A stretch of 64,000 nucleotides of DNA from an uncultured Candidatus Saccharibacteria bacterium (GTDB taxonomy: Bacteria > Patescibacteriota > Saccharimonadia > Saccharimonadales > Saccharimonadaceae): assembly GCA_947165465.1 (NCBI GenBank), contig CAMVAM010000003.1:29289-93288 (forward strand), read 5' to 3'. Below are positions 28,765-52,469 of the stretch, in pieces; within the stretch, counting starts at the first letter, position 1, and the number at the start of each line of letters is the position of its first letter. The notes beneath the pieces were generated by a model, which was not told the origin of the DNA, ran no database searches, and saw nothing but the letters and a program-made list of their open reading frames with translations. Both the position numbers and the translations under genes were made by a program.

Positions 28765-29300
28765 TATTTCTTCCCTGCCTTTCCAGCCTTGCGGATGATT
28801 ACTTCATCAACATACTTGATACCTTTGCCCTTGTATGGCTCTGGTTTCTTGAGGCTGCGGATTTCAGCGGCGACCTGACCGACTTTTTGCTTGTCGATGC
28901 CAGAGACCGTGATCTCCATTTTATTCGTGGTGAGTTGGACACCTTCTGGGGCTCTATATTTCACTGGGTGTGAAAAGCCAAGTGCCATCTCGATTTCCTG
29001 TCCACCACCAGATAGACGGAAACCTACACCATTAATTTCTAGTTTTTTCTCGAAACCTTTGGTCACACCTTGTACGGCATTATTAAGCAATGCGCGCTGA
29101 AGGCCGTGCCAAGCACGAGATTTTGGCTCGTCATCCTCACGGGTAACGATCACCTGAGTGCCTTCGACCTTGGTAGTGGTCTTTGGCTGAACCGGAACGA
29201 TGAGCTGACCCTTCGGTCCAGCAACAGTAATCTCTCTGTCGCCGACCGTGATTGTCACTCCCGCCGGAATATCGATGGGTTGTTTTCCGATACGACTCAT
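28764..29300 (-). CDS. rplF: 50S ribosomal protein L6
   Basis: MSRIGKQPIDIPAGVTITV...GPKG... has the duplicated L6 fold pattern. Confidence 0.95.
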   Translation of the reverse strand: MSRIGKQPIDIPAGVTITVGDREITVAGPKGQLIVPVQPKTTTKVEGTQVIVTREDDEPKSRAWHGLQRALLNNAVQGVTKGFEKKLEINGVGFRLSGGGQEIEMALGFSHPVKYRAPEGVQLTTNKMEITVSGIDKQKVGQVAAEIRSLKKPEPYKGKGIKYVDEVIIRKAGKAGKK

Positions 29301-29328
29301 ATATTTCCTTTAAGTTAATATCCGTACT

Positions 29329-29357
29329 ATTATACCACACCTTTTATCTGTTGACAA
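29329..29357 (-). promoter_or_regulatory. Strong sigma70-type promoter (TTGTCA-17-TGGTATAAT) driving rplF-rplR-rpsE-rplO
   Basis: The minus strand reads TTGTCA acagataaaaggtgtgg TATAAT, then a ~28-nt leader with AAAGGAAAT before the ATG at 29300. Confidence 0.65.
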
Positions 29358-29359
29358 GA

Positions 29360-30064
29360 TTAGAATAAGATTTGTGCCGGGTTACGCACCAGAACTTCGT
29401 CTAACTCTTGTTCATCCAAATACTTCGCAAGCTTTTTTCTAGCAGCAATTAGATAATCAGTCCCGCCCGGACGATGTAAATCGGAGCCAAATGCGAACAC
29501 CATTTTGTTTTTTAGCATCTTAATCAAAACTTTTCGTGCCTTTTTGCCGTAGCGATCCACGAGCGAGCCGAGATTGCACTGGAACAGCACGCCACATTCG
29601 TGTAAGTTTACAATCAAATCAAAATCTTCCTTAAAGCTCTCATATCTTTCCGGATGCGCCAAAATCACCTTAAAGCCACGTTGCATCAGCTCCAGGAAAA
29701 TATCTTCATAATTCGGGAATTCGCCACTCATCGGAAGCTCAATGAGAAGATATTTGCTTCCATTAATCCCGGTAATCTCCTGGCGTTCAATCAGCTTTTC
29801 GATATCGCGACAAATATAAATCTCATTGCCTAGATAGATATTCACATTAACTCCGGCCTTCTCAAGCTCAGAGCGTAGTTTCACTACAAGTGTAGCGTTT
29901 TTTACAGAGGAAACGGTATAATCCGTCTCATCCACATAGTGTGGTGTCGCAACCACGTCCGTAAAACCTTGACGCCCCAACCACTTCACCATTTCAACAC
30001 TGGTCCCAAAGTCTCTCGACCCATCGTCGACTCCCGGTAAAATGTGTGAATGAATATCAATCAT
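29360..30064 (-). CDS. cpsB: PHP-family protein-tyrosine phosphatase (CpsB/Wzh-like)
   Basis: MIDIHSHILPGVDDGS metal-binding N-terminus and HPERY motif. Adjacent to the BY-kinase gene. Confidence 0.88.
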   Translation of the reverse strand: MIDIHSHILPGVDDGSRDFGTSVEMVKWLGRQGFTDVVATPHYVDETDYTVSSVKNATLVVKLRSELEKAGVNVNIYLGNEIYICRDIEKLIERQEITGINGSKYLLIELPMSGEFPNYEDIFLELMQRGFKVILAHPERYESFKEDFDLIVNLHECGVLFQCNLGSLVDRYGKKARKVLIKMLKNKMVFAFGSDLHRPGGTDYLIAARKKLAKYLDEQELDEVLVRNPAQILF

Positions 30065-30066
30065 TT

Positions 30067-31425
30067 TTATTTCGCCGAATCACCATAATAATAATTATAG
30101 TATTTCGAGGATTTCTTGTTCACCATATTAAAGACAATACCGGCAATTCTGGCGCCAACTTTTTCTAGCGATTCCTTGGCTACCATGAGATCGCCCTTCG
30201 CGGTTTCGCCGTCTTTCACGACGATAAGCGTTTCATCTACGAAACTAGAAAGAATCACAGAGTCAGCAAGACCACCAACCGGCGCACCATCAAAGATGAT
30301 AATGTCGTAGTAATCGCAAAGCATATCGATGAGGCGTTTGTTCTTCTTGGATGCAAGAAGTTCACTTGGGTTTGGTGGATAAGTACCGCAAGTAATGATG
30401 TCGAGATTCTTGATTTTAGTCTTTTGGATATACTTTCCAAAGTATCTTAAATCATTAGTTAGAAGATTGGACAAACCATTCGTATTTGGAACTCCAAATA
30501 GTTTGTGCAAACGCCCTTTTCTTAAATCGCAGTCAACAATAAGGACTCTCTTATCGGCCTGGGCGAAAGAAATCGCAAGGTTCGATGAAATAAAGCTCTT
30601 ACCTTCGCTAGCATTGGTACTGGTAATTAAAATCGTCTTCAAATCTTTATCAACTGCGGTAAACTGCAAGTTAGTTCTAAGACTCTTAATATTCTCGCTT
30701 ACGATGGCCTTTGGTGATTTCTCAACCACGAGTTCACTTAGCTTTCTCTTCTCATCGCTCTTTAATACGCGCCCAGCAACCGGCATGCCAATCGTCTTTT
30801 CCACATCATCACTATGCTTAACGGAATCATCAAGATAGAATCTAAGGAAGGCAAAGCCGGCCACGGCAAAGATGGAAATCACGACAGCAAGGATAAGATC
30901 ACGCTTCAAAGTGTCATTAGCAGGTTTCTCCGGCTCAACCGCCACGCTAAGCTGCGTCACGTTCTCAATCTTGTAAATCCTAGCCACTTCAGCCGAGAAC
31001 ACACTGGCAATCTTATTAGCAATCACAGCAGACATCTCAGCAGTCGGATATTTAACAGTAATACCAAGAACTGCAGTATCATCTACCGGTTTAATGGTAA
31101 GGTTCTTGCTAAGCTCGCTTGCGGTAGTGTTAAGCTCCAACTCATTAATCACCTGATTCAAAACCAATTCGCTTTTTGCGATGACGCTATAGGTAGAAGC
31201 GAGCTTCTGGCTAGCGTTGATTTCGTTCAAGGTCGTTGCCGTACCGACTTCCGTTTCGTCGGATTTAGCAATCACAACTGTGGTCTGTGCCTGATAAATC
31301 GGTTTCTTAAACATCGATTCGTAAATAGTCACGCCAACAGCCGCGACCAACGCGAAAACAATAAAAGCCAAAATATAGTGCTTCAAATAACTAAAAAATT
31401 CTTTTATATTGATTTCTTCCATCAC
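30067..31425 (-). CDS. Fused Wzz-type chain-length modulator + bacterial tyrosine (BY) kinase (CpsC-CpsD fusion)
   Basis: N-terminal Wzz region with two TMs. Walker A ITSTNASEGKS, Walker A'/B (LIVDCDLRKG, IIIFDGAP). Tyr-rich C-terminus KYYNYYYGDS. Start is GTG at 31425 or ATG at 31422, preceded by TGCTATAAT and a GGAG leader. Confidence 0.88.
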   Translation of the reverse strand: MMEEINIKEFFSYLKHYILAFIVFALVAAVGVTIYESMFKKPIYQAQTTVVIAKSDETEVGTATTLNEINASQKLASTYSVIAKSELVLNQVINELELNTTASELSKNLTIKPVDDTAVLGITVKYPTAEMSAVIANKIASVFSAEVARIYKIENVTQLSVAVEPEKPANDTLKRDLILAVVISIFAVAGFAFLRFYLDDSVKHSDDVEKTIGMPVAGRVLKSDEKRKLSELVVEKSPKAIVSENIKSLRTNLQFTAVDKDLKTILITSTNASEGKSFISSNLAISFAQADKRVLIVDCDLRKGRLHKLFGVPNTNGLSNLLTNDLRYFGKYIQKTKIKNLDIITCGTYPPNPSELLASKKNKRLIDMLCDYYDIIIFDGAPVGGLADSVILSSFVDETLIVVKDGETAKGDLMVAKESLEKVGARIAGIVFNMVNKKSSKYYNYYYGDSAK

Positions 31426-31467
31426 TTACATTCTCCATTTATCATTATAGCATAACCACCAAAAGGT

Positions 31468-32625
31468 TTAAACATCATTATCCAAGTATTCATTCATTTT
31501 CCTCACAATTTCCTTGTACGATTCTTCATCCGGAATCATCGCCCAAAGTGGCATATCTTCACCATAAGTATAAGTCGGATACAAATCGCCCTCGCCATCG
31601 AGACCAATCGATTCAATCTTCCAACCGGTCCTGTTCGCGAGCAAGAACTTAAGAAATGTCGTAATATCGTCACGCGTAAAGCTAGTTTCGAAAGTGTTTC
31701 CGGCGATTTCGAGGATTTCCGGAAGTCTTAGCAATTGATCGTTCGAGCTTAAGAACTTATTAATAATTCCCGTCAAAACTTCCTGCTGGTTTTCACCACG
31801 ATGCCTGTCACCGCGATAATATTTCTTTCTTTCCCTCGAAAATGCTAAAGCGCATTTTCCATCTATTTGTTGTGGTCCATATACAAATACACATTTCCCA
31901 CCACCATCCCTGGCGTTCAAAGTCATCGCAGTGTCCGAGAAGATTTCAATTCCGCCTAGCTCATCGACTACTTCCACTACCGTATCAAAGCTTACTCTAA
32001 TCGTGTGATAAATATTAAATCCGAGAAAATCCTCGAGAGTCTGCCGACTAAGTTCCGTATTATTATTCAGCCCTGCATGAGTGAGCTTATCCTTTAAACC
32101 TGTCGTACCATGTAGTTGCACATAAGTATCGCGTGGAATGTTGACTAGAAGAATCTTCTTTTTCTCCGGGTTCATCACAGCGAGAATATTCACATCGCTT
32201 CTAGCCGTTGGGTCGTCAATATCCGTACGTGAATCAGTGCCAGAAATATAGACAATATATGGATCCTTCGTAATGTCCACAGAATAATCCGGCCTAGTTT
32301 CGCTACTTATACTGATATTCGAACTCACCTTATCGAGAAAGGCATTAAATGCATTGGTGTAACGAAGCGCAAATATTCCTCCCGCGATACAGGCGGCCGA
32401 TACCAACATACATAGGACTCTAAGTACTAAGAGCGATTTTTTCTTCACGAAAAACATCGTCACGCATAGCGCAAATAGTACCGCAAGAATCACCGCCGCG
32501 AGCACCACCACCCATGAATCCAAAATGTGTAGTCTCGCGACCGATACTAAGCACATCACAGACACCACTGCTTGTGCTAGTGCCAGTAACAGTCCAATAA
32601 TTCGCCACACCAAATAGTTTTTCAT
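31468..32625 (-). CDS. LytR-CpsA-Psr (LCP) family glycopolymer-peptidoglycan ligase
   Basis: Three N-terminal TMs, then the LCP core (SDVNILAVMNPEKKKILLVNIPRDTYV...). TAATG overlap with ugd. Confidence 0.85.
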   Translation of the reverse strand: MKNYLVWRIIGLLLALAQAVVSVMCLVSVARLHILDSWVVVLAAVILAVLFALCVTMFFVKKKSLLVLRVLCMLVSAACIAGGIFALRYTNAFNAFLDKVSSNISISSETRPDYSVDITKDPYIVYISGTDSRTDIDDPTARSDVNILAVMNPEKKKILLVNIPRDTYVQLHGTTGLKDKLTHAGLNNNTELSRQTLEDFLGFNIYHTIRVSFDTVVEVVDELGGIEIFSDTAMTLNARDGGGKCVFVYGPQQIDGKCALAFSRERKKYYRGDRHRGENQQEVLTGIINKFLSSNDQLLRLPEILEIAGNTFETSFTRDDITTFLKFLLANRTGWKIESIGLDGEGDLYPTYTYGEDMPLWAMIPDEESYKEIVRKMNEYLDNDV

Positions 32626-33809
32626 TAGTCCCTCGCAAACAAATCACGTGTGTAAACGATATCAGCTACATCGCGTAAGTGTTCCTCGAGGCGGTTTGCG
32701 ATGATTAAATCGCTACGCTTAGCAAACTCATCAAATTGGTTTACGATTTCAAATCCGGCATATCTTTTTTCGGAAAGCGTTGGTTCATAAATAATCACTT
32801 CGATACCCTCGCCACGAAGCTGCTTAATCACATCATGAATGGCTGCCGAACGGAAGTTGTCCGAGCCGCTCTTCATAGTCAAACGGTACACGCCCACAGT
32901 ACTTGGTTTACGCTTGCAAATATCTTTCACGATGAAATCTTTACGAGTCTTGTTGGCCTGTACGATTGCCCTAATGAGGTCTTGAGGCACATTGTGATAG
33001 TTTGCAAGAAGTTGCTTAGTATCTTTTGGCAAGCAGTAGCCACCATAACCAAAAGATGGGTTGTTGTAATGCGCACCGATGCGAGGATCAAGACAAACAC
33101 CATCAATAATAGACTTAGTGTCAAGCCCCTTCACCTGGGCATAGGTATCAAGCTCGTTAAAGAACGAAACTCTAAGCGCAAGATAAGTATTAGCAAAGAG
33201 CTTAATTGCCTCGGCTTCGGTTGGTTGAACGAACAGTACCGGCACGTCCTTGGCAAGTGCTGCAGACTGGAGCATCTTGGCAAATTTCTGGGCAGCAGGA
33301 GTTTCATCACCCACGATGATACGTGAAGGATAGAGGTTGTCATAAAGCGCCTTACCCTCGCGGAGAAATTCCGGCGAGAAGAAGATGTTATTAATGCTAT
33401 ATTTTTTACGAACTTTTTCGATATAGCCCACCGGGATGGTAGATTTCACGACAATCGTCATCTTGTCGTCTTTCATCTTGATGGCTTTTTCGATGATGTC
33501 TTCCACGGCAGAAGTATCGAAAGTATTCGTTTCGTCATCGTAATTAGTCGGGGTTGCAACGATTACAAACTCGGCGCCTTCCATGGCCTCCTTGTAGTCA
33601 ACGCTACCGCGAATGTTGAGTTTACGCTCACCCCGCTTGGCTTCATCGAAGAACTTCTCGATGTATTCATCACGAATCGGCGATTCTAAGTTACTGATTT
33701 TATCGGCTTTATCCTGGTGAATCTCTAAGACCACCACCTCATTCTTTTGGCTGAGTAATGTGGCTAGAGACAGACCAACATAACCACCACCTGCTACAGT
33801 TATTTTCAT
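32625..33809 (-). CDS. ugd: UDP-glucose 6-dehydrogenase
   Basis: MKITVAGGGYVGLS Rossmann start and catalytic-Cys region GYGGYCLPKD. I prefer the ATG at 33809 (GGAGAA 5 nt upstream) over 33824. Confidence 0.92.
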   Translation of the reverse strand: MKITVAGGGYVGLSLATLLSQKNEVVVLEIHQDKADKISNLESPIRDEYIEKFFDEAKRGERKLNIRGSVDYKEAMEGAEFVIVATPTNYDDETNTFDTSAVEDIIEKAIKMKDDKMTIVVKSTIPVGYIEKVRKKYSINNIFFSPEFLREGKALYDNLYPSRIIVGDETPAAQKFAKMLQSAALAKDVPVLFVQPTEAEAIKLFANTYLALRVSFFNELDTYAQVKGLDTKSIIDGVCLDPRIGAHYNNPSFGYGGYCLPKDTKQLLANYHNVPQDLIRAIVQANKTRKDFIVKDICKRKPSTVGVYRLTMKSGSDNFRSAAIHDVIKQLRGEGIEVIIYEPTLSEKRYAGFEIVNQFDEFAKRSDLIIANRLEEHLRDVADIVYTRDLFARD

Positions 33810-33848
33810 TTTTTCTCCATTCAAAAAATAATAAAATTACTTAATAAT

Positions 33849-33877
33849 ATTATATCTGATTTTTAGCTTTTTGTCAA
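33849..33877 (-). promoter_or_regulatory. Consensus sigma70 promoter (TTGACA-17-TATAAT) for the ugd-LCP-kinase-phosphatase unit
   Basis: The minus strand reads TTGACA aaaagctaaaaatcaga TATAAT, about 35 nt upstream of the ugd ATG. Confidence 0.7.
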
Positions 33878-33891
33878 TTAAACTATCCCTC

Positions 33892-33978
33892 TTGCCAGCT
33901 CTTAATGGGTGTGGTATAATCAAAACATATTCGGGAATACCCGCACCACCCCATTCGCAAGACTGGGGGATATTTTTT
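33892..33978 (+). ncRNA. Candidate ~50-nt plus-strand small RNA (promoter + two hairpins + T-run), convergent with the MazF-like gene
   Basis: TTGCCA-17-TGGTATAAT (33892-33920), then hairpin cggg/aata/cccg and hairpin cccca/ttcgcaagac/tgggg followed by gatatttttt. The same hairpins could simply terminate the minus-strand toxin gene. Confidence 0.3.
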
Positions 33979-34369
33979 AGTTAAAATATAAACTCTGAAA
34001 ACCGTTCTTCACTATTTGCAAATCAGACCCAGGGACCATACCCATCTTTTTATAAAGTCTCGACACACTAAAAACTCTTATTTGAGCTAAAGACGCGTAT
34101 TGTTTTCTGTTTTTAAAACAAAAACTAACATACCAACTACCATCATGTTCTTTGGATGTTAGCGGCACACCGAGAAATCCATATCGACTCAATTTCTTCA
34201 GAACTAGAACCGGCCGAGAAAAAGCACTATTCTTTCCATTTATTTCAACCCCAACATTCTCGCCAACAGCACACCACCATATTTCACCATCACGAATATC
34301 CGGTACCCTACCAGCATAGTGTACATTTTCTTTTACCCCGATCCACTCTTCAAAACGTTTTTCTTCCAT
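33977..34369 (-). CDS. PemK/MazF-family toxin-like protein with no adjacent antitoxin ORF
   Basis: GEIWWCAVGENVGVEINGKNSAFSRPVLVLKKLS...GVPLTSKE...LAQIRVFSVSRL matches the PemK/MazF SH3-like barrel signature. I prefer the ATG at 34369 (AGGAG 4 nt upstream) over the listed TTG at 34417. Confidence 0.7.
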   Translation of the reverse strand: MEEKRFEEWIGVKENVHYAGRVPDIRDGEIWWCAVGENVGVEINGKNSAFSRPVLVLKKLSRYGFLGVPLTSKEHDGSWYVSFCFKNRKQYASLAQIRVFSVSRLYKKMGMVPGSDLQIVKNGFQSLYFN

Positions 34370-34442
34370 AAAACTCCTGTATTTATTTTCAACAAAAAAT
34401 AAATCATGCGGAGTCAAAAACTACAACCCCCCACCTATATAA

Positions 34443-35492
34443 CTACTTATAGAATTCTTTGTACCACTCAGCGAATTTGCGAAGACCATCGCGAAGTGAA
34501 GTATGTGGTTTGAATCCAAAATCTCTTTCAAGCGCCGAAGTATCAGCATAAGTTATCGGCACATCGCCAGGCTGCATCGGGACGAGCTCTTTGTGGGCTT
34601 CAAAATCATAGTCTTCCGGCAAAACCTTCGCACGGATCAATTCTTCCTGCAAAATCTGGACGAAATCGAGTAAATTCTCTGGATTGGAATTACCGATATT
34701 GTACACAGCATACGGTGCAAGTGGCAAACCATCTTCCCCGTCCTTTTTCTCCGGGGCTTTGGCCATCACGCGCATCACGCCTTCGACAATGTCGTCAATA
34801 TAGGTAAAGTCACGCTTACAGTTGCCATAGTTAAAAATCTGGATCTTTTCACCATTAATGAGTTTATTGGTAAACCCAAAGTAAGCCATGTCCGGGCGTC
34901 CAGCCGGTCCATAAACCGTAAAGAATCTGAGGCCCGTAGAAGGAATATTATAGAGTTTAGAATACGCATGCGCAAGAAGCTCATTAGATTTCTTCGTCGC
35001 AGCATATAGGCTCACCGGATTATCGACTTTATCTTCTACAGCAAACGGCACCTTCTTGTTACCACCATACACAGAAGACGAAGAAGCATAGACCAAATGC
35101 TCCGGCATGTGGTAACGGCAAGCTTCAAGGATGTTGTAGAAGCCAATTAAATTCGATTCGATATAAGCATCCGGATGCTCAATCGAATAACGTACACCAG
35201 CCTGAGCCGCAAGGTTCACTACGATGTTTGGCTGATACTTTTCAAAAACCTCATCCACGGCTTTCTTGTCCGCCAAATTTCCTTTGATGAATTCGAAATT
35301 CTTAAAGGATTCGAGCTCTTTCAAGCGATACTCTTTTAGTCTTACATCATAATAATCATTGACCGAGTCAAAACCAATCACCTTGGCATCTGGATTTTCC
35401 ATACAAACACGTTTTGCCAAGGCGGCACCAATAAAACCGGCTGCACCGGTAATCAGAATAGTCTTATTGTCAAAAACAGCGTACCTATCCAT
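34443..35492 (-). CDS. NAD-dependent UDP-glucuronate 4-epimerase (SDR family)
   Basis: ILITGAAGFIGAAL, YAATKKSNE catalytic YxxxK, overall Cap1J/LpsL-type sequence. Neighbour of ugd. Confidence 0.85.
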   Translation of the reverse strand: MDRYAVFDNKTILITGAAGFIGAALAKRVCMENPDAKVIGFDSVNDYYDVRLKEYRLKELESFKNFEFIKGNLADKKAVDEVFEKYQPNIVVNLAAQAGVRYSIEHPDAYIESNLIGFYNILEACRYHMPEHLVYASSSSVYGGNKKVPFAVEDKVDNPVSLYAATKKSNELLAHAYSKLYNIPSTGLRFFTVYGPAGRPDMAYFGFTNKLINGEKIQIFNYGNCKRDFTYIDDIVEGVMRVMAKAPEKKDGEDGLPLAPYAVYNIGNSNPENLLDFVQILQEELIRAKVLPEDYDFEAHKELVPMQPGDVPITYADTSALERDFGFKPHTSLRDGLRKFAEWYKEFYK

Positions 35493-35498
35493 ATTACT

Positions 35499-35507
35499 AT
35501 TATACCA
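35499..35507 (-). promoter_or_regulatory. Extended -10 box (TGGTATAAT), 6 nt upstream of the epimerase ATG (35492)
   Basis: The minus strand reads TGGTATAAT-AGTAAT-ATG. Confidence 0.55.
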
Positions 35508-35540
35508 TATCTAATAGTGCTTAACTTATCTCTTAAATAC

Positions 35541-37055
35541 TCAATTCTTCCTTTTTATCAATAATAATCTTCTCAATAGCTTTTTTGATGATTTCAGTTC
35601 TTCACGGAAAAACAAGAGATTAAATATAAGAGTCACCACACAAGCAACACCAAATACCATTAAGGCATTTAATATCCAATTCAGATAATTGCTATTCTCA
35701 GTAAACGGCAATAATTGCGATACCATTACTATTATAATTGTCTCAATAGCAACCAATAATAATTTTTTAATACTTTCCCAAATAGATCTTTCGAGTATGT
35801 ATTTATTGGTATGATAAACGAACTCTGCGGTGCGAATAGTCATAGCTACAATCGTGCCTATCGCAACACCGACTATACCGAGCCAGTTAACCAATAATAT
35901 TGAAATAATAATATTGGTCAAACACTCCACCCATGCGCCTGTGCGAGTTTCTTTAAAATGTCCCGCAGCCAGGATAATCGAATTATATGGCTGACGAATA
36001 GCCCAGATAAATTCACTTATAACAATAAGTACGCCAAATACGGGCCTTATATAATCCGCATCGGTAGTTCCATTCATATAAATAGAAATGAATGGAGTAA
36101 TCAGTACAATTGCAGTAGCAAAAGAAATAGTGCTAATAGTCCCATATAGTACTTCAAACATTGAAAACTTTCTACTTAAATTCTGTTTTTCGTTCTTTGC
36201 AATCATATCTCCAAATGTTGCATCAACACTACCAGAAAAAACGCCAATAATAGACTTAACACCCCTAACTACTAGATAATATATAGAATAAACAGACACC
36301 TCACTCAACGATGAAAAAATAGTTAAAACCGTAACATCAGTTTTAGTGTGAATAACATACGCAACATGTTGCGCTAAGCCATCCCATTTCTTTTCAAGCT
36401 TATAGTTGCTCGAATTGCCAGTATAATCTATATTGTATTTCTTCTTAACATATATATTTAAAATTAGTGGACGAAGAATAAAGACCGCTCCACTTATTAG
36501 TTTAATAAGATGAATCCCGGCCCCAATTCTTGCCAATACAACTACAAATAACATCGATAGTAAGTAAGTACATATTTGAATATTTGAGATAATGTATTTT
36601 TTTTGCTTAGCTTGTAAGAATAGAGTATACGTCATCCCAAAATAGTATTCTGCAAAAGTACTAATTCCAATTATTGCAATAAGCGAAGCAGTAAATGCCC
36701 ATTCGTAATCGCTATTAATCATCGTCGGATATACTATACAAAGAATGGCAATATATCCGAGAAAAATAATAGCAATTATTCTAAAGAATCTTTCAGAAGT
36801 CCTTAAAATGCTTCCAATTGTCTTGTTGTCTTTATTTGCAATTGGTTTATATAACGCCGCCTTTACTACCGGGCCAAAACCAGACTCCAACAGAGTAATA
36901 TAAGCTAAAAACTGCGTAATAGAAGAAACGAGTCCATTAACCGCGGAGCCAAATGAACCGATAATAATCTTCGGTATAATAAAGCCACTGATAATTATTA
37001 CTGCCTGTAAGACAATATTGCTTATAATATTATACAAAGCCTTTTTGCTTCTCAT
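35541..37055 (-). CDS. wzx: Wzx-type polysaccharide flippase (MOP superfamily)
   Basis: 504-aa highly hydrophobic ORF with about 12-14 TMs and the typical N-terminus (KALYNIISNIVLQAV). ATGA overlap with the upstream GT2 gene. Confidence 0.75.
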   Translation of the reverse strand: MRSKKALYNIISNIVLQAVIIISGFIIPKIIIGSFGSAVNGLVSSITQFLAYITLLESGFGPVVKAALYKPIANKDNKTIGSILRTSERFFRIIAIIFLGYIAILCIVYPTMINSDYEWAFTASLIAIIGISTFAEYYFGMTYTLFLQAKQKKYIISNIQICTYLLSMLFVVVLARIGAGIHLIKLISGAVFILRPLILNIYVKKKYNIDYTGNSSNYKLEKKWDGLAQHVAYVIHTKTDVTVLTIFSSLSEVSVYSIYYLVVRGVKSIIGVFSGSVDATFGDMIAKNEKQNLSRKFSMFEVLYGTISTISFATAIVLITPFISIYMNGTTDADYIRPVFGVLIVISEFIWAIRQPYNSIILAAGHFKETRTGAWVECLTNIIISILLVNWLGIVGVAIGTIVAMTIRTAEFVYHTNKYILERSIWESIKKLLLVAIETIIIVMVSQLLPFTENSNYLNWILNALMVFGVACVVTLIFNLLFFREELKSSKKLLRRLLLIKRKN

Positions 37056-38113
37056 TTAATTACCCCCACCATTTTCAATATCTTGCAAATTGGTCTATAC
37101 CGAAGGTTTTTTAAATAGTCGCCATTTAGTATATTTTTACAAATCGCTTTCTTTATCATGTTTTGTCTTATGCTTGATGAGTCAAAGCCGACAAGATAAG
37201 CTGGTAATACTACCCTTAAACCTTCTTGAATTTCTATAAGGTCATCTTTGGGAGTAATGCTATTTGCTAATACTGCAATGATTCTTCCAGACAAAGCCGA
37301 CAAGGTCATATTAATGAGTTTTTCTTCATCTACGCATCCGAATCTTTCGATTGCAATTCTTTTTCTTACGCCATTAATAAAGATGCTCTCTCTTATATTA
37401 CTAATAATCCTTTTTGCACTAATATTATTAGTAGCTCCATCGGGATTATCTACATAATGATATAAATTATCCTCCAGAAAAACAATTTTTTTTGCTTTCA
37501 AAAAAATATGAAGATTTATTTGTAAATCATCCCCCTGACGGACGGCATTATCAAAGATTTTATCATCAAAATCGTAAAGTTGTCTTTTTACCATTTCATT
37601 CCAAACAGAATTACATTCCACGCTATATATTAACAGCTTTATTATCTGGTCAATTCTTTCGCCCACGACAACTCTTTCGGTCACCAAACGTTCATTTAAT
37701 ATGTTTTTTTCTTTTTTAGATGGCTCACAAATGTACCCAAATTTAACAATATCAACATTCTCTTCTGTTTTAGTGACTTCCACGCATTTTTTTACTAAAT
37801 CGCTCTCCAACCAATCATCAGAGTCCTCAATTATAACATAATCGCCACTCGCCCTTCGTATTCCATTCTTTCTAGCAATCACAGGGCCACTATTCTTTTG
37901 ATTTAAAACAATTATTCTATTATCTTTTTTTGCAAACTCCTTGGCTATTTCTAATGATTTATCCTCTGATCCATCGTTGACGAGAATAATCTCAATGTTC
38001 TTATACGTTTGTTTACATATAGACTCGATACATCTAGGTAAGTATTTTTCCGTATTATAAATCGGTACAATTACGGACACTAATATCGATTCTTGATTAT
38101 TATTACCTTCCAT
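37052..38113 (-). CDS. Glycosyltransferase family 2
   Basis: VSVIVPIYNTEKYLPRCIESICKQTYKNIEIILVNDGSEDKS and a DxD-like EDSDD. Confidence 0.88.
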   Translation of the reverse strand: MEGNNNQESILVSVIVPIYNTEKYLPRCIESICKQTYKNIEIILVNDGSEDKSLEIAKEFAKKDNRIIVLNQKNSGPVIARKNGIRRASGDYVIIEDSDDWLESDLVKKCVEVTKTEENVDIVKFGYICEPSKKEKNILNERLVTERVVVGERIDQIIKLLIYSVECNSVWNEMVKRQLYDFDDKIFDNAVRQGDDLQINLHIFLKAKKIVFLEDNLYHYVDNPDGATNNISAKRIISNIRESIFINGVRKRIAIERFGCVDEEKLINMTLSALSGRIIAVLANSITPKDDLIEIQEGLRVVLPAYLVGFDSSSIRQNMIKKAICKNILNGDYLKNLRYRPICKILKMVGVIK

Positions 38114-38135
38114 AGTTTATCCTTATTGTACCAAT

Positions 38136-38681
38136 TTAATCGTGTAGTTTTTTTATAATTAACCGTCGATCATTCGTGACTAAAGAGTTATCCGGTATTA
38201 AACCTTTTACAACGGTTCCTGCACCAATTATACAATTATCTCCGATTCTCGTATTCTTCAAAACTATCACATTTGCTCCTATCCATACATTATTACCAAT
38301 TGTTACTTTTCCTATTGAATACCCTTCTTTTTTTCCATTTCTTCCGAATGCATGATCATGATCATATATGTGACAATTTGGGCCTATTACGACATTGTTA
38401 CCAATAGATATCTCTCCCTTTGAAACAATCATCGAATTAACATTAACAAATAGATTGTCTCCAATCGTCATTTTTGCACCACTATTTGCTGATATAATAA
38501 CTCGTTCACACACCGAAATCGCCCCACGTAGAACCATAATAGATTTTTTTACAATAATGCTATCCATCGATTCGATATTGCAGTGAATAGTTTTTTTATT
38601 AATACAAAGTCCACTTCCATACTTAATTTTTAAACATAGAAGCCTACAAACTGACTTAATCTTTTTTATTACTTTTTTCAT
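38136..38681 (-). CDS. Hexapeptide-repeat (LbH) O-acetyltransferase
   Basis: Repeated [LIV]G-x4 units (ISIGNNVVIGPNCHIYD..., VTIGNNVWIGANVIVLKNTRIGDNCIIGAGTVV). Confidence 0.85.
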   Translation of the reverse strand: MKKVIKKIKSVCRLLCLKIKYGSGLCINKKTIHCNIESMDSIIVKKSIMVLRGAISVCERVIISANSGAKMTIGDNLFVNVNSMIVSKGEISIGNNVVIGPNCHIYDHDHAFGRNGKKEGYSIGKVTIGNNVWIGANVIVLKNTRIGDNCIIGAGTVVKGLIPDNSLVTNDRRLIIKKLHD

Positions 38682-39598
38682 TTTTCATCCTTATTTTTAG
38701 AATCCGGCAGCCTAATCATTTTGCCAAGTTTATTATTCCATTTTTCATCGTCAAATTGTTCAAAACCACCAGCCGGAAAGAAAGTCATCTCCCCAAAATA
38801 AACCTTTCCGTTTATTTCGTATAAGTCCACGCGGACGTGTGGGATGCCACTAGATAGTTTCTCAGCAATTTTTTTCATTTCCCCAAACCGTGATGGCATT
38901 TCTAAATCTGTCCTGCTCTTATGCCCACCCTCTCTTAGATTAATTAGTTTAAAATCCTCGTCCAACCAAGTTTCTTCCAAATCTTTCTGACGATTGGTAC
39001 AAACAAGTACAATTCCAATCTTTCCATCAAAACAGAAAAACTTATAATCTCTTAGTTCGCCATATTTATCATCTTCCATATATTTTTCAATTATTATTCG
39101 TGGTTTTACACCACTATATGGCCATTCTCTCGATGTAAGAAAAAAATCCCTCTTCATAGACTTATTAATAATTCTCTTTGCCTTAGCCGTATCAAATGAA
39201 TCTTTTTTCTTACATATAACCAACCCTCCAGAATTATGTGTACACTTAATAACAAATTGGTCTGGCAGATCGTCAAAACAAATATCGTCAAATTTATCAT
39301 ACACGCCTATTGTTGGGATGATATATTTTCCCCCTATTATGTTGGCTACATATTTTTTTGCTTCATATTTATCCACCATGACGGTATAAATATCTTTGCG
39401 ATCGTTTAATTTCAGCCACTGCAACTTCTCATTATAGGATTCAGGGTTGTCCAAATTGAGCTTTTTACCGGTCTTTATTCTATAAAGAATAGAAAGATAT
39501 TTTTCATCCGGAAGAACAACTATACCTCGATTATTCAGAAAAACTAGAATATTCCTTGGGTCTTTTATGGTATCTTTAATTTTCTTTGACAATTTCAT
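38678..39598 (-). CDS. ATP-grasp fold amidoligase, TupA-like
   Basis: KLNLDNPESYNEKLQWLKLNDRKD...VDKYEAKKYV...IIPTIGVY and C-terminal VRVDLYEINGKVYFGEMTFFPAGG match the TupA-like ATP-grasp family pattern. I prefer the ATG at 39598 (AAGGAGA upstream). Confidence 0.8.
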   Translation of the reverse strand: MKLSKKIKDTIKDPRNILVFLNNRGIVVLPDEKYLSILYRIKTGKKLNLDNPESYNEKLQWLKLNDRKDIYTVMVDKYEAKKYVANIIGGKYIIPTIGVYDKFDDICFDDLPDQFVIKCTHNSGGLVICKKKDSFDTAKAKRIINKSMKRDFFLTSREWPYSGVKPRIIIEKYMEDDKYGELRDYKFFCFDGKIGIVLVCTNRQKDLEETWLDEDFKLINLREGGHKSRTDLEMPSRFGEMKKIAEKLSSGIPHVRVDLYEINGKVYFGEMTFFPAGGFEQFDDEKWNNKLGKMIRLPDSKNKDEK

Positions 39599-40802
39599 AT
39601 TCATTCTCCTTCTCGCTTTTAACACCTGCTGCACCCAACAGCAATCCAAATAGTATATACTCGAACTCTGATGAATAAGTGATAGCAGAAATATCTACAA
39701 CCAACATTATTGGTAACAAAACCTTTATTATTATATGGTAATTGCTACCTTTAGCTCCCCTATAAATTATAAAATATAGAGAATAATAAATGGCAAAACC
39801 TATTACACCAAGATTTGCGAGTAGCTCGGCATAGTTATTGTGCGAATATATTCCTTTCATGCTACTCTCATACCTAAAACCATCCTGACCGACGCCAATT
39901 ACTGGATTGTCCTTAAAGACTTGTATTGCTTCCCCTAATAGCCTTCTTCGAACTGCCGTAGATTGCATATTAGAACTAGAATCATCAGACGTCATTGTCT
40001 CAATAAAGCTATCAATCCTGTAACCTATAGAATTATATAACAAAGGCGTATTTTGGATTATCATATATCCACTCAGAATAAAAATCATCGTAATTACTAA
40101 TGTTTTAATTATCTTTACTATGTTTTTTGAGTTTAATAGTAATACAATTACAGATCCAATAACAAATATCAAAATGCTTTTCTTAGTTCCCATTAATAAA
40201 GCAATCGCCATAAAAGCTAAGATTAAACAGACGCAAGATATTTTTTTCCATTTCTTCATCTTGTGATTAAATATCAACTTCCAAAATAGAATTACCGAAG
40301 CATATGCCAGGGCGATTGCTGGAGTATTTGAGCCAAAAATAGTATCCTTTGAAAAACGCTCTCCATTCCCCCATTGCGACACCGGTACAGTCAAGATAAA
40401 CCTAGCTACCAAGACACCAGCAGCAGCAATAATATACTTAAATGTTCTGTCTACAGCGTTTTGTTTGCCATCACAATATATTATTATGACGATAGATAAT
40501 AAAACAACCTGTATAATAGATAAAATCGTCATAAAGGCCGTATTGTTTTCTTCCGATATCCACAATATGGATAGCGAGCTATAAAGGATAAATAGAAGAG
40601 CCCACAAAAAGTACTTGATGACAATAGTATTTTTTATTCTTTTATTCTTTATCACTATTGGAATTGCAAAGAATAAGGCTAATGCTTGTAATGATAGAAA
40701 AAGGATTTTTATGTCATAGAATGAAACACTAGCAACAACGGCTAATAGCACGGCAATATCAAACAATCGTATTTTATTTTTGCGCATAGCCACCCTTGTC
40801 AA
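39576..40802 (-). CDS. wzy: Wzy-type polysaccharide polymerase (O-antigen ligase-like fold)
   Basis: About 10 TMs and a Wzy_C-like loop (GIYSHNNYAELLANLGVIGFAIY). The start may be the ATG at 40787. Confidence 0.7.
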   Translation of the reverse strand: MTRVAMRKNKIRLFDIAVLLAVVASVSFYDIKILFLSLQALALFFAIPIVIKNKRIKNTIVIKYFLWALLFILYSSLSILWISEENNTAFMTILSIIQVVLLSIVIIIYCDGKQNAVDRTFKYIIAAAGVLVARFILTVPVSQWGNGERFSKDTIFGSNTPAIALAYASVILFWKLIFNHKMKKWKKISCVCLILAFMAIALLMGTKKSILIFVIGSVIVLLLNSKNIVKIIKTLVITMIFILSGYMIIQNTPLLYNSIGYRIDSFIETMTSDDSSSNMQSTAVRRRLLGEAIQVFKDNPVIGVGQDGFRYESSMKGIYSHNNYAELLANLGVIGFAIYYSLYFIIYRGAKGSNYHIIIKVLLPIMLVVDISAITYSSEFEYILFGLLLGAAGVKSEKENEYEIVKEN

Positions 40803-41919
40803 ATATGAAATTCAATATATTCTTTGCTCTTTCTTTAATAGTTATTTTTCTTGCCGTCTTCAAAGCCATCATTGACATATTTTCTCTTTTATTCTTATCA
40901 TTCTTTATACTTCTAATGGCGGTCTTAATATCTTGCAAATCATCCGGATTAATCAATATGGAATTATCGTTGTCTAAAATATCGTAATTAAACCGCTTAT
41001 CTGACGATATTACCGGTAACCCACACCCCATTGCCTCGATTATCGCGTTGCAACACCCTTCGTTTCTAGTCGGCAAGACGAATACATCGGATGTTGCATA
41101 AAAAATAGGTAAATCATCATGGTCAATCGGTGCATTCCATACGCAGTTCTTCGAAGTCGGTTTTAGCTTTCCTTTCCCTGCTGCAGCAAGTTTTACATCA
41201 CCACCAAAACTATCAACAGCCTTCTCCAACCGATCTATTCCCTTTCTTTCATCAAAACTCCCAACAAATGAAACAATAAAGTCTTTTTCATTAAAACCAA
41301 GTTTTTTTCTAGCTATTGTTTTATCGCTAGGCTTAAATAATTTTTCGTTAATCGCGTTCGGAAACACTTTTACGATTTTTGGATTCACATAATCAGAAAT
41401 CATCTCCTTATTCTGGGTCGACACAGCAATCACGCCAGTCAAAGAAGACAGCTCTCTTTTGACGGCCTTTTCTCCAAAATGCTTAATTGTCTGCAACGTC
41501 GCCTCACCATGCGCAAGAAAGGATGGTCTATTGTACTTCCTTCCTAATCTTGCAACGGCTATACCCGCTGGAGTAACAAAATGTGCATAAAAAACATCTA
41601 TATCACCCAAAGATTCATTGCTATCAATTAGCTTTTCAATAGCCTTTGTAAAACAATGGGTAGTTATTTTTGCGGGATTAAAAAACAAATAATCTCTCTG
41701 CCCTAGACCAAAATACCTTGGATAATACACCGTCACATTGTTTTCGGCCCTCTTTAGAGGTAACTTCTTATAGTTCTTATTGATGTTTGTAGGGACTGGA
41801 CTTATGACACTACATTTAATTCCTTGGCCAGCAATCTCGTCTACTAATTGTTTTAGAAAAATCGTAGTGTTTTTATCGACCTCATTCGGATACTTATTAG
41901 TAACAAAACAAATGTGCAT
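40774..41919 (-). CDS. Glycosyltransferase, GT4 family
   Basis: GT-B C-terminal signature (VFVLPTRNEGCCNAIIEAMGCGLPVISSD). Confidence 0.85.
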   Translation of the reverse strand: MHICFVTNKYPNEVDKNTTIFLKQLVDEIAGQGIKCSVISPVPTNINKNYKKLPLKRAENNVTVYYPRYFGLGQRDYLFFNPAKITTHCFTKAIEKLIDSNESLGDIDVFYAHFVTPAGIAVARLGRKYNRPSFLAHGEATLQTIKHFGEKAVKRELSSLTGVIAVSTQNKEMISDYVNPKIVKVFPNAINEKLFKPSDKTIARKKLGFNEKDFIVSFVGSFDERKGIDRLEKAVDSFGGDVKLAAAGKGKLKPTSKNCVWNAPIDHDDLPIFYATSDVFVLPTRNEGCCNAIIEAMGCGLPVISSDKRFNYDILDNDNSILINPDDLQDIKTAIRSIKNDKNKRENMSMMALKTARKITIKERAKNILNFIFDKGGYAQK

Positions 41920-41920
41920 T

Positions 41921-43297
41921 TTATTTCTCCGGCAATAATAGTTTTTGCCCCATTTCTAAATCGAACTCGTATGGAGTCACCTTATCAAAACCAGCCCCCA
42001 TAGTAAATGTTATTTCCCCAAAATAAATCTTTTCTTTAACTATATATAAATCTACTCTCGCGTGCGGGAATCCCTGCGAGAGAATACTCGCATAATTTAA
42101 TAATTTTTTTGTCACTTCCTTTGGCAGTGGCTGCATTGGTTCTCCATTTGGAAAATCCATCCTAACGCCCTTCAAAAATTTCCAATCTGTTGTGTATATG
42201 TTTTTTCTGTGATCCGTAAACCTATTAGTATCTACAGTAATGTATTCTGGCTTTCCACCAAAACACATAATTTTATAGTCCTCTGGCGATTCGCCTGACC
42301 CATTGTCTAGATACTCTTCAATTATTATTCGCGGTTTTTCCACACCATAAAACCACTCGCCATAACACTTAATAAATTTATACTTCAACCACTTTTTCAG
42401 TATTTTTTTAGTTTTCTTCCGATCGAGAAGCTTTGTATTTTTACAAATTATGTTTAATCCGCTACCATGCGTAACCTTTATCACGCATTTTTCAGGGAGT
42501 TTATTCCATGGAATACTCTCTGGGTCAAATCCTTGCCATATAAGCTTGTCTAATATTTCCGGACATCTCTCTTCAACATATTGTCTGACGGTATACTTAT
42601 CAACAAGCTTTGGCAGCAGCGGATTCTTATAATATAGTTTAATCCACTGTAGTTTTTCTGAATATGTTTTTGGATTCTTTAAATCTAACTTTTGACCATG
42701 TTTTAATCTAAACAGGATTTTCAATGCGGTCTTCGGGCTAATATCATACAAAAGATTTAACGGCGTAAGAATCGCACTTTTTGCTAAAGGCGTCAGCCCC
42801 TTTCTTTTCTTCTTTTTGCTATTTTCTTCAATATATTGATCCACTAGGCCAAAAACATCTGATTCCTTATTGTAGACCTTTACTATCGGTTTTTCTTTAA
42901 TCTTTTGAATTGACCGACCCAATTTTTCTATATCCCTTACTTCTAACAACAGCTTTTGTTCAGCAAGAACACCAGTGATTTGTGTTTGGTGGTCATCGAT
43001 ATGTTCGCCATATTTAGCTAATCTTGGCACGGCAATAACCTGTTTCTTCTTTTTTAATGCCCCAATAATCGCACCGGTCCCACCATGAGTAACAATCAAA
43101 TCCGCCTCATCTTGATACTTATTGAACTCTTTCTCGTCAAGAAAACGAGAATATTTATAATGTTTTGGTACATAATTCGAATCTGCTATCTGCGCAAATA
43201 CTTCATCCTTTATTACGCCACTCTCAATCAAAGAATCAACTTCTTTTAATAATCTATTAAACTGATATTCTCTTGAGCCAACACAAACGAAAATCAT
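41921..43297 (-). CDS. Fusion protein: Alg13/Cps14G-like glycosyltransferase C-terminal subunit + TupA-like ATP-grasp amidoligase
   Basis: Residues ~1-150 are MIFVCVGSREYQFNRLL...THGGTGAIIGAL...AVPRLAKYGEHIDDHQTQI (Glyco_tran_28_C/Alg13-like). Residues ~190-458 are LDLKNPKTYSEKLQWIKLYYKNPLL...VDKYTVRQYV...ARVDLYIVKEKIYFGEITFTMGAG (TupA-like). Confidence 0.8.
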   Translation of the reverse strand: MIFVCVGSREYQFNRLLKEVDSLIESGVIKDEVFAQIADSNYVPKHYKYSRFLDEKEFNKYQDEADLIVTHGGTGAIIGALKKKKQVIAVPRLAKYGEHIDDHQTQITGVLAEQKLLLEVRDIEKLGRSIQKIKEKPIVKVYNKESDVFGLVDQYIEENSKKKKRKGLTPLAKSAILTPLNLLYDISPKTALKILFRLKHGQKLDLKNPKTYSEKLQWIKLYYKNPLLPKLVDKYTVRQYVEERCPEILDKLIWQGFDPESIPWNKLPEKCVIKVTHGSGLNIICKNTKLLDRKKTKKILKKWLKYKFIKCYGEWFYGVEKPRIIIEEYLDNGSGESPEDYKIMCFGGKPEYITVDTNRFTDHRKNIYTTDWKFLKGVRMDFPNGEPMQPLPKEVTKKLLNYASILSQGFPHARVDLYIVKEKIYFGEITFTMGAGFDKVTPYEFDLEMGQKLLLPEK

Positions 43298-43758
43298 TAG
43301 TAAATACTCCCTCCATATATACCATCAGGATAATATTTAGCTAGCTGCTCCCATTGATAAATGAATAAATCTGCTTTACCATACATAAATTTACCAGCCC
43401 TAGTACAATCAGTGACTCTTGAAAATGTCTCAATAAATATTACTTTTTTCCTGAGAATCTTACAAAAAATACACATAGGAATAGCTACCATCGTACCAGT
43501 AGTCACAACAAAATCCGGTCGCTCTTTAGCAATAATATAAATCGTTTTAAAGCTGTTCAATAACGTCTTAATCGGGAATAGCCAATCTTTTAACCCAGAC
43601 TGCAATAAATGGTAATCTGCAATACTTTTATATTTCGTTGATTCTGTAACAACAAAAATATCATAATGCTCACCTAAAGGTTTTAGCATGCAAAGCTGCT
43701 GGTAATGACCACCAGACGACGAGATAAGACAAACTTTTGGCTTCTTTTGTCTACGCAT
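43297..43758 (-). CDS. Alg14/Cps14F-like membrane-anchoring glycosyltransferase subunit
   Basis: VCLISSSGGHYQQL...VVTTGTMVAIPMC pattern. 1-nt overlap with the Alg13-like fusion gene. Confidence 0.8.
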   Translation of the reverse strand: MRRQKKPKVCLISSSGGHYQQLCMLKPLGEHYDIFVVTESTKYKSIADYHLLQSGLKDWLFPIKTLLNSFKTIYIIAKERPDFVVTTGTMVAIPMCIFCKILRKKVIFIETFSRVTDCTRAGKFMYGKADLFIYQWEQLAKYYPDGIYGGSIY

Positions 43759-43872
43759 AATTCTTTTATAATTCTACACTTTTCCACATATTATTCTACC
43801 ACAAAACAGAGCAAAAGTAAAAAGCTTAAGTTTACTATTCCCCTAAAAAGCTATCCCCCCATAAACCTATAA

Positions 43873-43910
43873 AAATACCACCATATATTATATATAGTGG
43901 TATTTTACGT
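43873..43910 (-). terminator. Weak AT-rich hairpin + U-tract downstream of rpsH (possible partial terminator)
   Basis: aaataccac / catatattatatata / gtggtattt; on the minus strand it is followed by UUUUUAUA. The stem is AT-rich, so efficiency is uncertain. Confidence 0.35.
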
Positions 43911-43951
43911 AAAGCGGTCAAACTTTATTGTGTGCTCGCGCTAGCAACGAA

Positions 43952-50570: not shown

Positions 50571-50588
50571 GGGGTTTTTAAGAGATTT

Positions 50589-51107: not shown

Positions 51108-51108
51108 A

Positions 51109-52422: not shown

Positions 52423-52469
52423 TAATATAAGTATAATATTTTTTCTAAAAGATATCAAGCATAATGCTT

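Follow-up and report, generated by a model that had tools for sequence, protein, structure and literature searches.

A surface-polysaccharide locus between rpsH and rplF, at a site that appears hypervariable in gut Saccharibacteria

The Klebsiella K locus and the Escherichia coli O-antigen loci (galF-gnd/ugd) are replacement-type flexible islands. In SAR11, hypervariable region 2 (HVR2) is rich in glycosyltransferases and is bounded by the 23S and 5S rRNA genes (PMC3448164). HVR2 is the closest analogue found for the locus described here, which lies between rpsH and rplF, the genes for the ribosomal proteins S8 and L6, in an uncultured Candidatus Saccharibacteria bacterium (GenBank assembly GCA_947165465.1, contig CAMVAM010000003.1, positions 29,289 to 93,288). 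The stretch of 64,000 nucleotides that was analysed is called the window, and all coordinates refer to it. In our judgement it is likely that this is a surface-polysaccharide locus at a lineage-specific hypervariable rpsH/rplF site in ruminant-gut Saccharibacteria, insulated from the ribosomal operon and with cassettes exchanged by recombination.

In the window, rpsH (43952-44353, minus strand; Pfam Ribosomal_S8, E 6e-39) closes the upstream L3...S8 unit and constitutes the left conserved flank of the island, and rplF (28764-29300, minus strand; Pfam Ribosomal_L6, E 8e-34) opens the downstream L6-L18-S5-L15 unit and constitutes the right conserved flank. The two genes are separated by 14,651 nt. 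The order outside them is kept, with L5 and S14 upstream of S8 and with L18, S5 and L15 downstream of L6. The interval contains 14 intact open reading frames (ORFs), all on the minus strand and thus co-oriented with the ribosomal genes. An initial annotation of this DNA had described a 14.65-kb polysaccharide locus of 14 genes here, all on the strand of the ribosomal genes. Pfam searches confirm its coordinates and gene content, and the gene order is corrected to epimerase, MazF, Ugd. The interval thus holds what is genuinely a locus for a surface polysaccharide (capsule or wall polymer), of the Gram-positive Wzx/Wzy type.

The split between S8 and L6 is real and is no assembly artefact. An L6 protein identical to that of the window is encoded on 22 contigs that were read, from many independent ENA assemblies, and the genes for LCP (LytR-CpsA-Psr), Wzz/kinase and CpsB are found directly upstream in each one shown. 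The identical S8 protein is likewise encoded on 22 contigs read from independent assemblies, and polysaccharide genes come next wherever the sequence extends beyond S8. Each junction is carried by at least 20 independent metagenome contigs. One contig, ERZ1061516 scaffold_6819 (18,143 nt), covers both junctions in the order S14-S8, a different cps type, and L6-L18-S5-L15-FKBP. The named closest homologues of L6 and CpsB are all labelled Candidatus Saccharibacteria. The representatives of related species are metagenome-assembled genomes (MAGs) from goat duodenum and other Saccharibacteria MAGs, and the habitat of the source organism is probably the ruminant gut.

The island displays considerable diversity when contigs with an identical S8 or L6 protein are compared. 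At least five cassette designs were found: the window type, GT4/Hexapep/GT4/EpsG/ATP-grasp/flippase/GT2/Acyl_transf_3, CapD/Bac_transf/epimerase/..., PGA_cap/GT2/flippase/Acyl_transf_3, and others. A blastn comparison of scaffold_6819 with the window gives a left arm that is 95% identical (44720-43766), then an unrelated 8.3-kb cassette in which only the ATP-grasp gene matches, at 70% (43766-35509), and then a right arm that is 90-93% identical (35509-25936), in which about 554 nt (33888-34441) are found in the window only. Between strains with different cassettes, the L6-L18 DNA is 98.6-100% identical and the Wzz-CpsB module 93-100%. The breakpoints of similarity fall at two promoter-like sites, P1 and P2, which are described below. 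The GC content is 0.31-0.39 over 35-44 kb compared with 0.42-0.47 elsewhere. These comparisons support the view of the S8|L6 junction as a hotspot of recombination or replacement. The initial annotation had raised this idea, which is strengthened by the number of cps types beside nearly invariant L6-L18 DNA and by the finding of other cargo, or nothing, in sister species.

Few known gene adjacencies are as conserved as S8-L6, which was taken as the norm in the initial annotation. This agrees with about 85 loci outside Saccharibacteria that have both genes, where every S8-L6 gap is 269 nt or less. Among the more distant Saccharibacteria, S8 and L6 are also mostly adjacent, with a few independent insertions (L029, L035/L036, L041; loci compared in the analysis carry L numbers). 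The relatives of the window strain, on the other hand, routinely have the two genes split. The possibility that such a separation is routine both in relatives and in unrelated phyla, which would have made it a known trait, therefore holds in its first part, as a lineage trait, and fails in its second.

CpsB homologues from other Saccharibacteria species, 52-75% identical, are found directly upstream of L6-L18-S5-L15-FKBP in L101, L102/L103, L104 and L105, and cps genes follow S8 in L123, L129 and L178. In L106 the cps locus is found elsewhere and not upstream of L6. Other loci hold different cargo in the S8-L6 interval: a single anchored protein of 585 amino acids (L021), a 2098-amino acid VWA/Cna_B/FctA adhesin (L023), a cluster with Big_2, signal-peptidase-like and camelysin-like proteins (L022), a protein resembling the GBS104 tip pilin (L127), and other proteins (L112, L114, L116, L128), most with a signal peptide and several with a C-terminal hydrophobic anchor and a basic tail. 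Leucyl-tRNA synthetase occupies the interval in L121 and L122, and nothing is inserted in L026, L115, L117, L118, L148 and L175, where the gaps are 26-70 nt. A contig scan of species representatives gave no representative with cps genes upstream of L6 among the matches listed; the clade-level trait was established through the CpsB homologues and their contigs. A comparison of the junction across relatives, as proposed in the initial annotation, thus reveals a variable site with cps types, adhesins, other cargo or no insert.

The identities of the modules do not follow those of the ribosomal proteins. L101 is 97% and 96% identical to the window in L6 and L18, with 64% in the Wzz-kinase, no match for Ugd and 75% in CpsB. 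L102 is less similar in L6 and L18 (92% and 84%), yet has 80% in the Wzz-kinase, 85% in Ugd and 55% in CpsB. Because module identities fail to track the ribosomal proteins, exchange between lineages appears to have taken place. Judged from these comparisons, the S8|L6 junction is a lineage-specific hypervariable site for predicted surface determinants in gut Saccharibacteria.

The arrangement of putative signals around the island suggests that it is transcribed separately from the ribosomal genes. A terminator-like hairpin with a stem of 15-16 bp, a 3-nt loop and a following U-run (43866-43906, minus strand) is found 46 nt after the rpsH stop codon. It corresponds to inverted repeat I13, folds with a centroid of -16 kcal/mol (z -3.3) and would work as a terminator. 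Strains that have a different cps type retain the hairpin, and so do sister species whose cargo is another (L021, L107, L112, L123, L129). A hairpin with a U-run is found right after S8 in all 16 occupied loci of sister species that were folded, although the sequences differ, and also in the window and in strains of its own species, compared with none of the four empty loci. The initial annotation had seen only a weak AT-rich hairpin after rpsH, an estimate that the stem, the U-run and the conservation across species do not bear out.

Four promoter-like sites, all on the minus strand, divide the island. P1 (TTTACT-17-TGgTAGAAT, 43793-43821), found by promoter scan, alignment of 10 loci and motif enrichment, would serve the type-specific cassette; on the left side of that alignment the similarity between cps types stops just past its -10 element. 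P2 is an extended -10 element, aTGGTATAATA (35495-35512), just upstream of the epimerase gene. It forms direct repeat D19 together with the rplF promoter, and in the alignment it is the first conserved sequence beyond the divergent cassettes, at the right edge of the type-specific cassette. P3 (TTGACA-17-TATAAT, 33849-33877), upstream of ugd, matches the consensus in 12 of 12 positions and is identical in strains with other cps types. P4 (TTGTCA-17-TGgTATAAT, 29329-29357) is the putative rplF promoter already pointed out in the initial annotation, and was recovered by the scan with 11 of 12 matches plus the TG. Its -35 element begins 3 nt past the cpsB stop codon with no terminator in between, and cpsB-to-rplF is the only junction without a terminator. 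P4 is 100% conserved in strains. An equivalent is found before rplF in sister species regardless of cargo and at the empty site L026, and the empty sites L115, L117 and L118 have -10-like elements before rplF.

The motif TGGTAKAAT is found seven times in the window, at 43793, 35499, 33912 (plus strand) and 29329 and also at 18708, 57987 and 59601, when 1.2 copies are expected. Four of the seven copies are located at unit boundaries of the island, and two in direct orientation bound the variable cassette. On these grounds the spc cluster of the clade may consist of two transcription units, with an rplF promoter that would have been present before the insertions or independently of them. The S8|L6 junction would be tolerant of inserted DNA because rplF already had its own promoter. 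The island looks insulated upstream from the ribosomal operon, and not coupled to it, because occupied sites have a hairpin after rpsH and a cargo promoter.

Several points weigh against the interpretation given above. The terminator and all four promoters are predictions from sequence, and a generic promoter scan is not enriched compared with shuffled sequence (58 found, 53 expected); that scan was set aside, and the case for the promoters was built on conservation across strains and on motif enrichment. We infer recombination from mosaic identities, and the evidence for natural competence, which is part of the model below, comes from oral Saccharibacteria only. The S8 end of L101-L105 lies beyond the 10 kb fetched for these loci. 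An exact-protein look-up gave no independent copy of the window's Alg14 or Alg13-ATP-grasp fusion, and the best homologue of the window cassette in the protein collection is 75% identical, with no near-identical copy. The only support for the S8-to-Alg14 junction therefore comes from the shared intergenic region and from the arrangement in L178. Finally, no initiating phosphoglycosyltransferase (Bac_transf or Glycos_transf_4) was found by Pfam in the island or in any ORF of the 64-kb window, and tblastn with the Bac_transf proteins of L017 and L101 as queries gave nothing in the window, whereas other cassette types at the site do encode such an enzyme (L017, L123, L129, L101). Synthesis of the polymer by the island would thus depend on an initiating transferase gene outside the window, and to call the locus complete-looking, as was done initially, was an overstatement.

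Alternative explanations for the island have different degrees of probability. Since hypervariable regions often break or misjoin metagenome assemblies, and many of the contigs found are short, two unrelated contigs might have been joined at the ribosomal genes. This is effectively refuted already by the recurrence of both junction types in about 20 independent assemblies each, by the second contig that spans the whole island, and by flanking intergenic sequences that are conserved base for base. It is very improbable that the locus is a mobile genomic island inserted by site-specific recombination or transposition. Such an origin would fit the GC content of the cassette, which is below that of the flanks, and the toxin genes in or next to such islands. 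However, surface-glycan loci commonly have a wzx/wzy part of low GC, and the conserved module is native to Saccharibacteria, with CpsB homologues at 50-75% identity that are so labelled wherever they are named. No integrase or transposase was found among the window ORFs, no tRNA or Rfam family in the whole window, and no flanking direct or inverted repeats in a repeat search, in which only the promoter -10 motif was repeated at unit boundaries. The initial annotation had reported the lack of integrase, transposase, tRNA and obvious flanking direct repeats, and this remains valid across the window, where the neighbours are housekeeping genes (aminoacyl-tRNA synthetases, release factor, FtsEX, peptidoglycan hydrolases, UvrD).

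The initial annotation had raised the idea that expression of the glycan genes is coupled to ribosomal-protein transcription. Such a functional coupling, in which transcripts of the highly expressed L3-S8 unit would continue into the island and make capsule synthesis scale with growth rate, is quite unlikely. The shared orientation of all 14 genes is compatible with it, as is the hairpin of this strain, which is AT-rich and could leak, and transcription of cps would enter rplF, as no terminator is found between cpsB and rplF. The strong hairpin and U-run after rpsH in every occupied locus folded but in no empty one argue against it, as do the conserved promoter-like sites that the cassette, the epimerase gene and ugd each have, and the rplF promoter at empty sites. 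The site also holds unrelated cargo, in some cases on the opposite strand (L029, L101, L105), or nothing, and for this reason no single function can be tied to the position. It is rather unlikely that the window allele is decaying or inactive, having lost its initiating transferase and suffered the insertion of a toxin gene. In its favour, no initiating transferase gene is found in the window, the genes upstream of Alg14 in the related cassette of L179 are CapD, Bac_transf and an epimerase, and the 554-bp MazF insert is found in this strain alone. On the other hand, all 14 ORFs are intact, and the insert is intergenic and leaves P3 untouched. In another species (L178), Alg14 is likewise the opening gene of the cassette and directly follows the terminator and promoter after S8, and because of this recurrent design the initiator is more readily seen as encoded elsewhere, for example by a gene of WecA/TagO type, than as lost.

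The gene content of the island is described here from rpsH towards rplF; all genes are on the minus strand. The cassette begins with the Alg14-like membrane subunit of a two-part glycosyltransferase (43297-43758; Pfam Alg14, E 1e-12), which reaches 146.8 bits against the NCBIfam PssD/Cps14F equivalog (cutoff 110). The next gene (41921-43297) encodes an Alg13-like catalytic subunit (PssE/Cps14G) fused to a TupA-like ATP-grasp amidoligase domain (Pfam Glyco_tran_28_C and ATPgrasp_TupA), with 143 bits against NCBIfam PssE (cutoff 120). PssD/Cps14F and PssE/Cps14G are the two halves of a beta-1,4-glycosyltransferase, and both island proteins are above the equivalog cutoffs. The fusion is rare: 5.8 billion proteins were searched and yielded only four full-length homologues, none of them above 75% identity. 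Taken by itself, the ATP-grasp half has numerous homologues (55-67% identity), of which the few with names are labelled Bacillota, Erysipelotrichaceae or Acetivibrio. These names hint at a possible exchange of cassette genes across phyla in the gut.

A GT4 glycosyltransferase (40774-41919; Pfam) follows, for which the best NCBIfam resemblance, with a score under the family cutoff, is to TuaC of teichuronic acid synthesis. The Wzy-type repeat-unit polymerase (39576-40802; Pfam Wzy_C, E 1e-13, 51.8 bits with a cutoff of 31.7) has about 10 hydrophobic segments. The stand-alone TupA-like ATP-grasp enzyme (38678-39649; Pfam ATPgrasp_TupA, E 8e-69) is a predicted uronic-acid amidoligase, a function we infer from the analogous C-terminal domain of Cj1438 in Campylobacter jejuni (PMC11800379). 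In the C. jejuni capsule, the carboxylate of glucuronic acid (GlcA) is amidated by a TupA-like ATP-grasp domain that forms one protein with a glycosyltransferase (PMC11800379). The hexapeptide-repeat O-acetyltransferase (38136-38681; Pfam Hexapep) is below the NCBIfam cutoffs for WbbJ, LacA and Maa, and the GT2 glycosyltransferase (37052-38113; Pfam Glycos_transf_2, E 7e-37) resembles TuaG of teichuronic acid synthesis with a score below the NCBIfam cutoff.

The last gene of the type-specific cassette (35541-37055) encodes a polytopic membrane protein of 504 amino acids with at least 10 hydrophobic segments and no match in Pfam, NCBIfam or PDB sequences. Its family was compared by hhalign with flippases annotated as MurJ or Polysacc_synt that have the same position in other cassettes, which gave a probability of 91% (E 1e-6, 386 columns). 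An earlier profile comparison with two flippases gave a weak 56%, and the higher value was obtained after a MurJ-annotated flippase had been added. An AlphaFold2 single-sequence model was too poor to use (pLDDT 45.7). The protein is probably a divergent flippase (Wzx) of the MOP family.

The conserved module begins with an NAD-dependent sugar-nucleotide epimerase (34443-35492; Pfam Epimerase) that is 87-97% identical in other strains and species. Its PDB matches are 5u4q (E 4e-112) and then the UDP-GlcA 4-epimerase of Bacillus cereus (6zl6/6zla, E 4e-41), and it is probably a UDP-glucuronate 4-epimerase, with the substrate predicted from these matches. The UDP-glucose 6-dehydrogenase gene ugd (32625-33809) encodes three UDPG_MGDP_dh Pfam domains and is 98% identical in other strains. 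Ugd and the epimerase are kept in most cassette types at the site, which points to a polymer containing GlcA or galacturonic acid. Then follow the LCP glycopolymer-to-peptidoglycan ligase (31468-32625; Pfam LytR_cpsA_psr, E 7e-32) and a fused Wzz-type modulator and bacterial tyrosine kinase, equivalent to CpsC and CpsD in one protein (30067-31422; Pfam Wzz and CbiA/AAA_31/ParA). The translation of the latter contains Walker A (GKS) and Walker B (IIIFDGAP) motifs, together with a YYNYYY cluster at the C terminus. The island ends with the gene for CpsB, a phosphotyrosine phosphatase of PHP type (29360-30064; Pfam CpsB_CapC, E 4e-54, full length).

Between the epimerase gene and ugd, the 554-bp insert (33888-34441, minus strand) carries an ORF for a PemK/MazF-like toxin (33977-34369 from an ATG, or 33977-34417 from a TTG) with 35.7 bits against Pfam PemK_toxin (cutoff 23.1). 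The insert is absent from all other strains compared. No ORF for a cognate antitoxin was found within the insert in the approximately 75 nt upstream or 90 nt downstream of the toxin ORF, and PADLOC gave no match for the MazF-like protein or for two nearby ORFs of no known family. A MazF homologue with 60% identity is the first gene after S8 in L107 (L107:901-1302). Toxin genes also recur in or beside other cps islands, with a ParE pair in L106 (L106:6620-7235) and a Zeta toxin in L179 (L179:20213-20893). A promoter-like sequence, TTGCCA-17-TGgTATAAT (33892-33920, plus strand), is situated at the 3' end of the MazF insert and faces back across the toxin gene; an antisense RNA to the MazF-like gene could be transcribed from it.

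Many of the proteins encoded by non-cps cargo (L021-L023, L112, L116, L127) end in a hydrophobic helix and a short basic tail (...KFAKRK, ...LMRRR), and a pattern search found no LPXTG before the C-terminal helix of these proteins. This suggests that these Saccharibacteria proteins may share a C-terminal anchoring or sorting signal. Elsewhere in the window, two ORFs of 1320 amino acids (17582-21544) and 982 amino acids (11029-13977) have no Pfam match and may encode further surface proteins.

The ribosomal cluster of the window deviates from the spc order at more positions than the S8/L6 gap. There is no L30 between S5 and L15, and L15 is not followed by SecY, Adk or Map; FKBP, exonuclease I, lactate dehydrogenase and DUF2207 are found instead (on the 27198-28432 side). 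There is no S10 before L3, where a protein of 172 amino acids of no known family and three genes of peptidoglycan-hydrolase type are found (on the 49815-54542 side).

A model for the island can be proposed in which the steps of polymer synthesis are drawn from homology and the workings of the site from sequence and comparison. A lipid-linked repeat unit would be begun by a transferase encoded elsewhere in the genome and lengthened by the two-part Cps14F/G-type enzyme, the GT4 and the GT2. Ugd and the UDP-GlcA 4-epimerase would supply uronic acids, which the two TupA-like ATP-grasp amidoligases probably amidate, and the hexapeptide transferase would O-acetylate the repeat unit. The divergent Wzx would flip the unit and Wzy polymerise it, under the control of the fused Wzz/tyrosine kinase and the CpsB phosphatase, and the LCP enzyme would ligate the polymer to peptidoglycan.

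The proposed layout of the island is rpsH, hairpin, P1, the low-GC type-specific cassette, P2, epimerase, P3, ugd-lcp-wzz/kinase-cpsB, P4 and rplF. DNA inserted between the rpsH stop codon and the rplF promoter would not starve the downstream ribosomal genes, because this strong predicted promoter already precedes rplF at sites that have no insert between S8 and L6. Cassettes would be swapped by homologous recombination between the arms, with rpsH and P1 on the left and the conserved module and rplF on the right. Natural competence, which has been shown for cultured Saccharibacteria that recombine with arms of roughly 1 kb (PMC10633639), probably assists such swaps. The result would be a serotype-like diversity of the surface that faces host bacteria, phages and grazers. 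A more far-reaching proposal, which we regard as possible but somewhat doubtful, is that the rpsH|rplF junction is a dedicated exchange site, at which the ribosomal genes serve as universal homology arms and competent cells exchange cassettes for capsule, adhesin or pilus among strains and also across species. These cassettes may be bounded by promoter elements and sometimes accompanied by toxin genes.

Saccharibacteria are obligate epibionts, tiny bacteria that live on other bacteria. An island with a strain-variable capsule or adhesin provides concrete and typable candidates for the surface determinants of their host range, phage sensitivity and persistence. In a cultured Saccharibacteria relative, exopolysaccharide genes affect fitness in transposon sequencing (PMC10633639). 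The comparison of loci also suggests a path by which a break in the S8-L6 pair became tolerated, with an internal rplF promoter first and terminator-insulated cargo afterwards.

The position of the island has a practical consequence because it is in the middle of the block of syntenic ribosomal proteins used for phylogeny and binning in the candidate phyla radiation. Many metagenome contigs (L014, L018, L003 and many short ones) stop close to S8 or L6, at the island or a short way into it, and assemblies are therefore probably broken by strain heterogeneity at the island. Broken assemblies would split the ribosomal marker set across contigs.

No description of the S8|L6 island or of capsule loci in ribosomal clusters of Saccharibacteria was found in the literature searched, with most subscription journals outside its coverage. 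What is new here is the position inside the spc cluster; the parts and the replacement-type population pattern are already known from surface-glycan islands. The cps locus of Streptococcus pneumoniae (dexB-aliA) and other Gram-positive Wzx/Wzy loci for capsule or exopolysaccharide share with the island the LCP (CpsA), CpsB, the CpsC/D kinase and Wzy, and they have a flippase, for which the island has its probable Wzx. Like the island, the pneumococcal locus also has serotype-specific glycosyltransferases including subunits of Cps14F/G type, a low-GC type-specific centre between conserved arms, and many types per species. It differs in that the regulatory genes are 5' (cpsABCD), whereas they are 3' in the island (lcp, wzz/kinase, cpsB), where CpsC and CpsD are fused and this cassette type has no CpsE-type initiator in the locus. 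The flanks are ribosomal protein genes here, and the host is a Saccharibacteria epibiont.

The Klebsiella K and E. coli O-antigen loci are similar in having ugd in a conserved arm and low-GC wzx and wzy, and their types are switched by homologous recombination in the flanks, as is proposed for the island. In contrast to the island, they have Gram-negative export (Wza/Wzc or ligation to lipopolysaccharide) and flanks of sugar metabolism genes instead of essential ribosomal genes. The tua genes for teichuronic acid in Bacillus subtilis and TupA for teichuronopeptide in Bacillus halodurans share the Ugd-dependent uronic-acid chemistry, and the GT4 and GT2 of the island resemble TuaC and TuaG at family level, below equivalog cutoffs. 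Cj1438 of C. jejuni contains a TupA-like ATP-grasp fused to a glycosyltransferase as in the island (PMC11800379), where the fusion partner is a Cps14G-type half-enzyme and not a GT2.

The conserved ribosomal cluster itself has been described as becoming disconnected, and the available part of that published account gives the insertion of a few genes as a first step. This is similar to the clade studied here, which also lacks S10 before L3 and SecY after L15. The insertions highlighted in that part are located between operons, whereas the break here is inside spc, between otherwise adjacent genes, and appears to persist as a site for variable cargo with no full separation.

HVR2 of SAR11 is, like the S8|L6 island, a fixed-position hypervariable island rich in glycosyltransferases and membrane proteins, with ultra-conserved flanks, inside a translation-apparatus operon of a genome-streamlined bacterium. 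It splits the rRNA operon and not spc, comprises some 50 genes or more with mixed functions, and belongs to another phylum with another envelope; no LCP/tyrosine-kinase/CpsB module is described there. Together the two islands hint at a tendency of streamlined genomes to keep hypervariable surface genes flanked by ultra-conserved genes of translation. If the junction is indeed a dedicated exchange site, it would parallel HVR2 in a second streamlined lineage and would suggest a general rule, namely that in reduced genomes the surface genes that vary most are placed between the genes that are conserved most.

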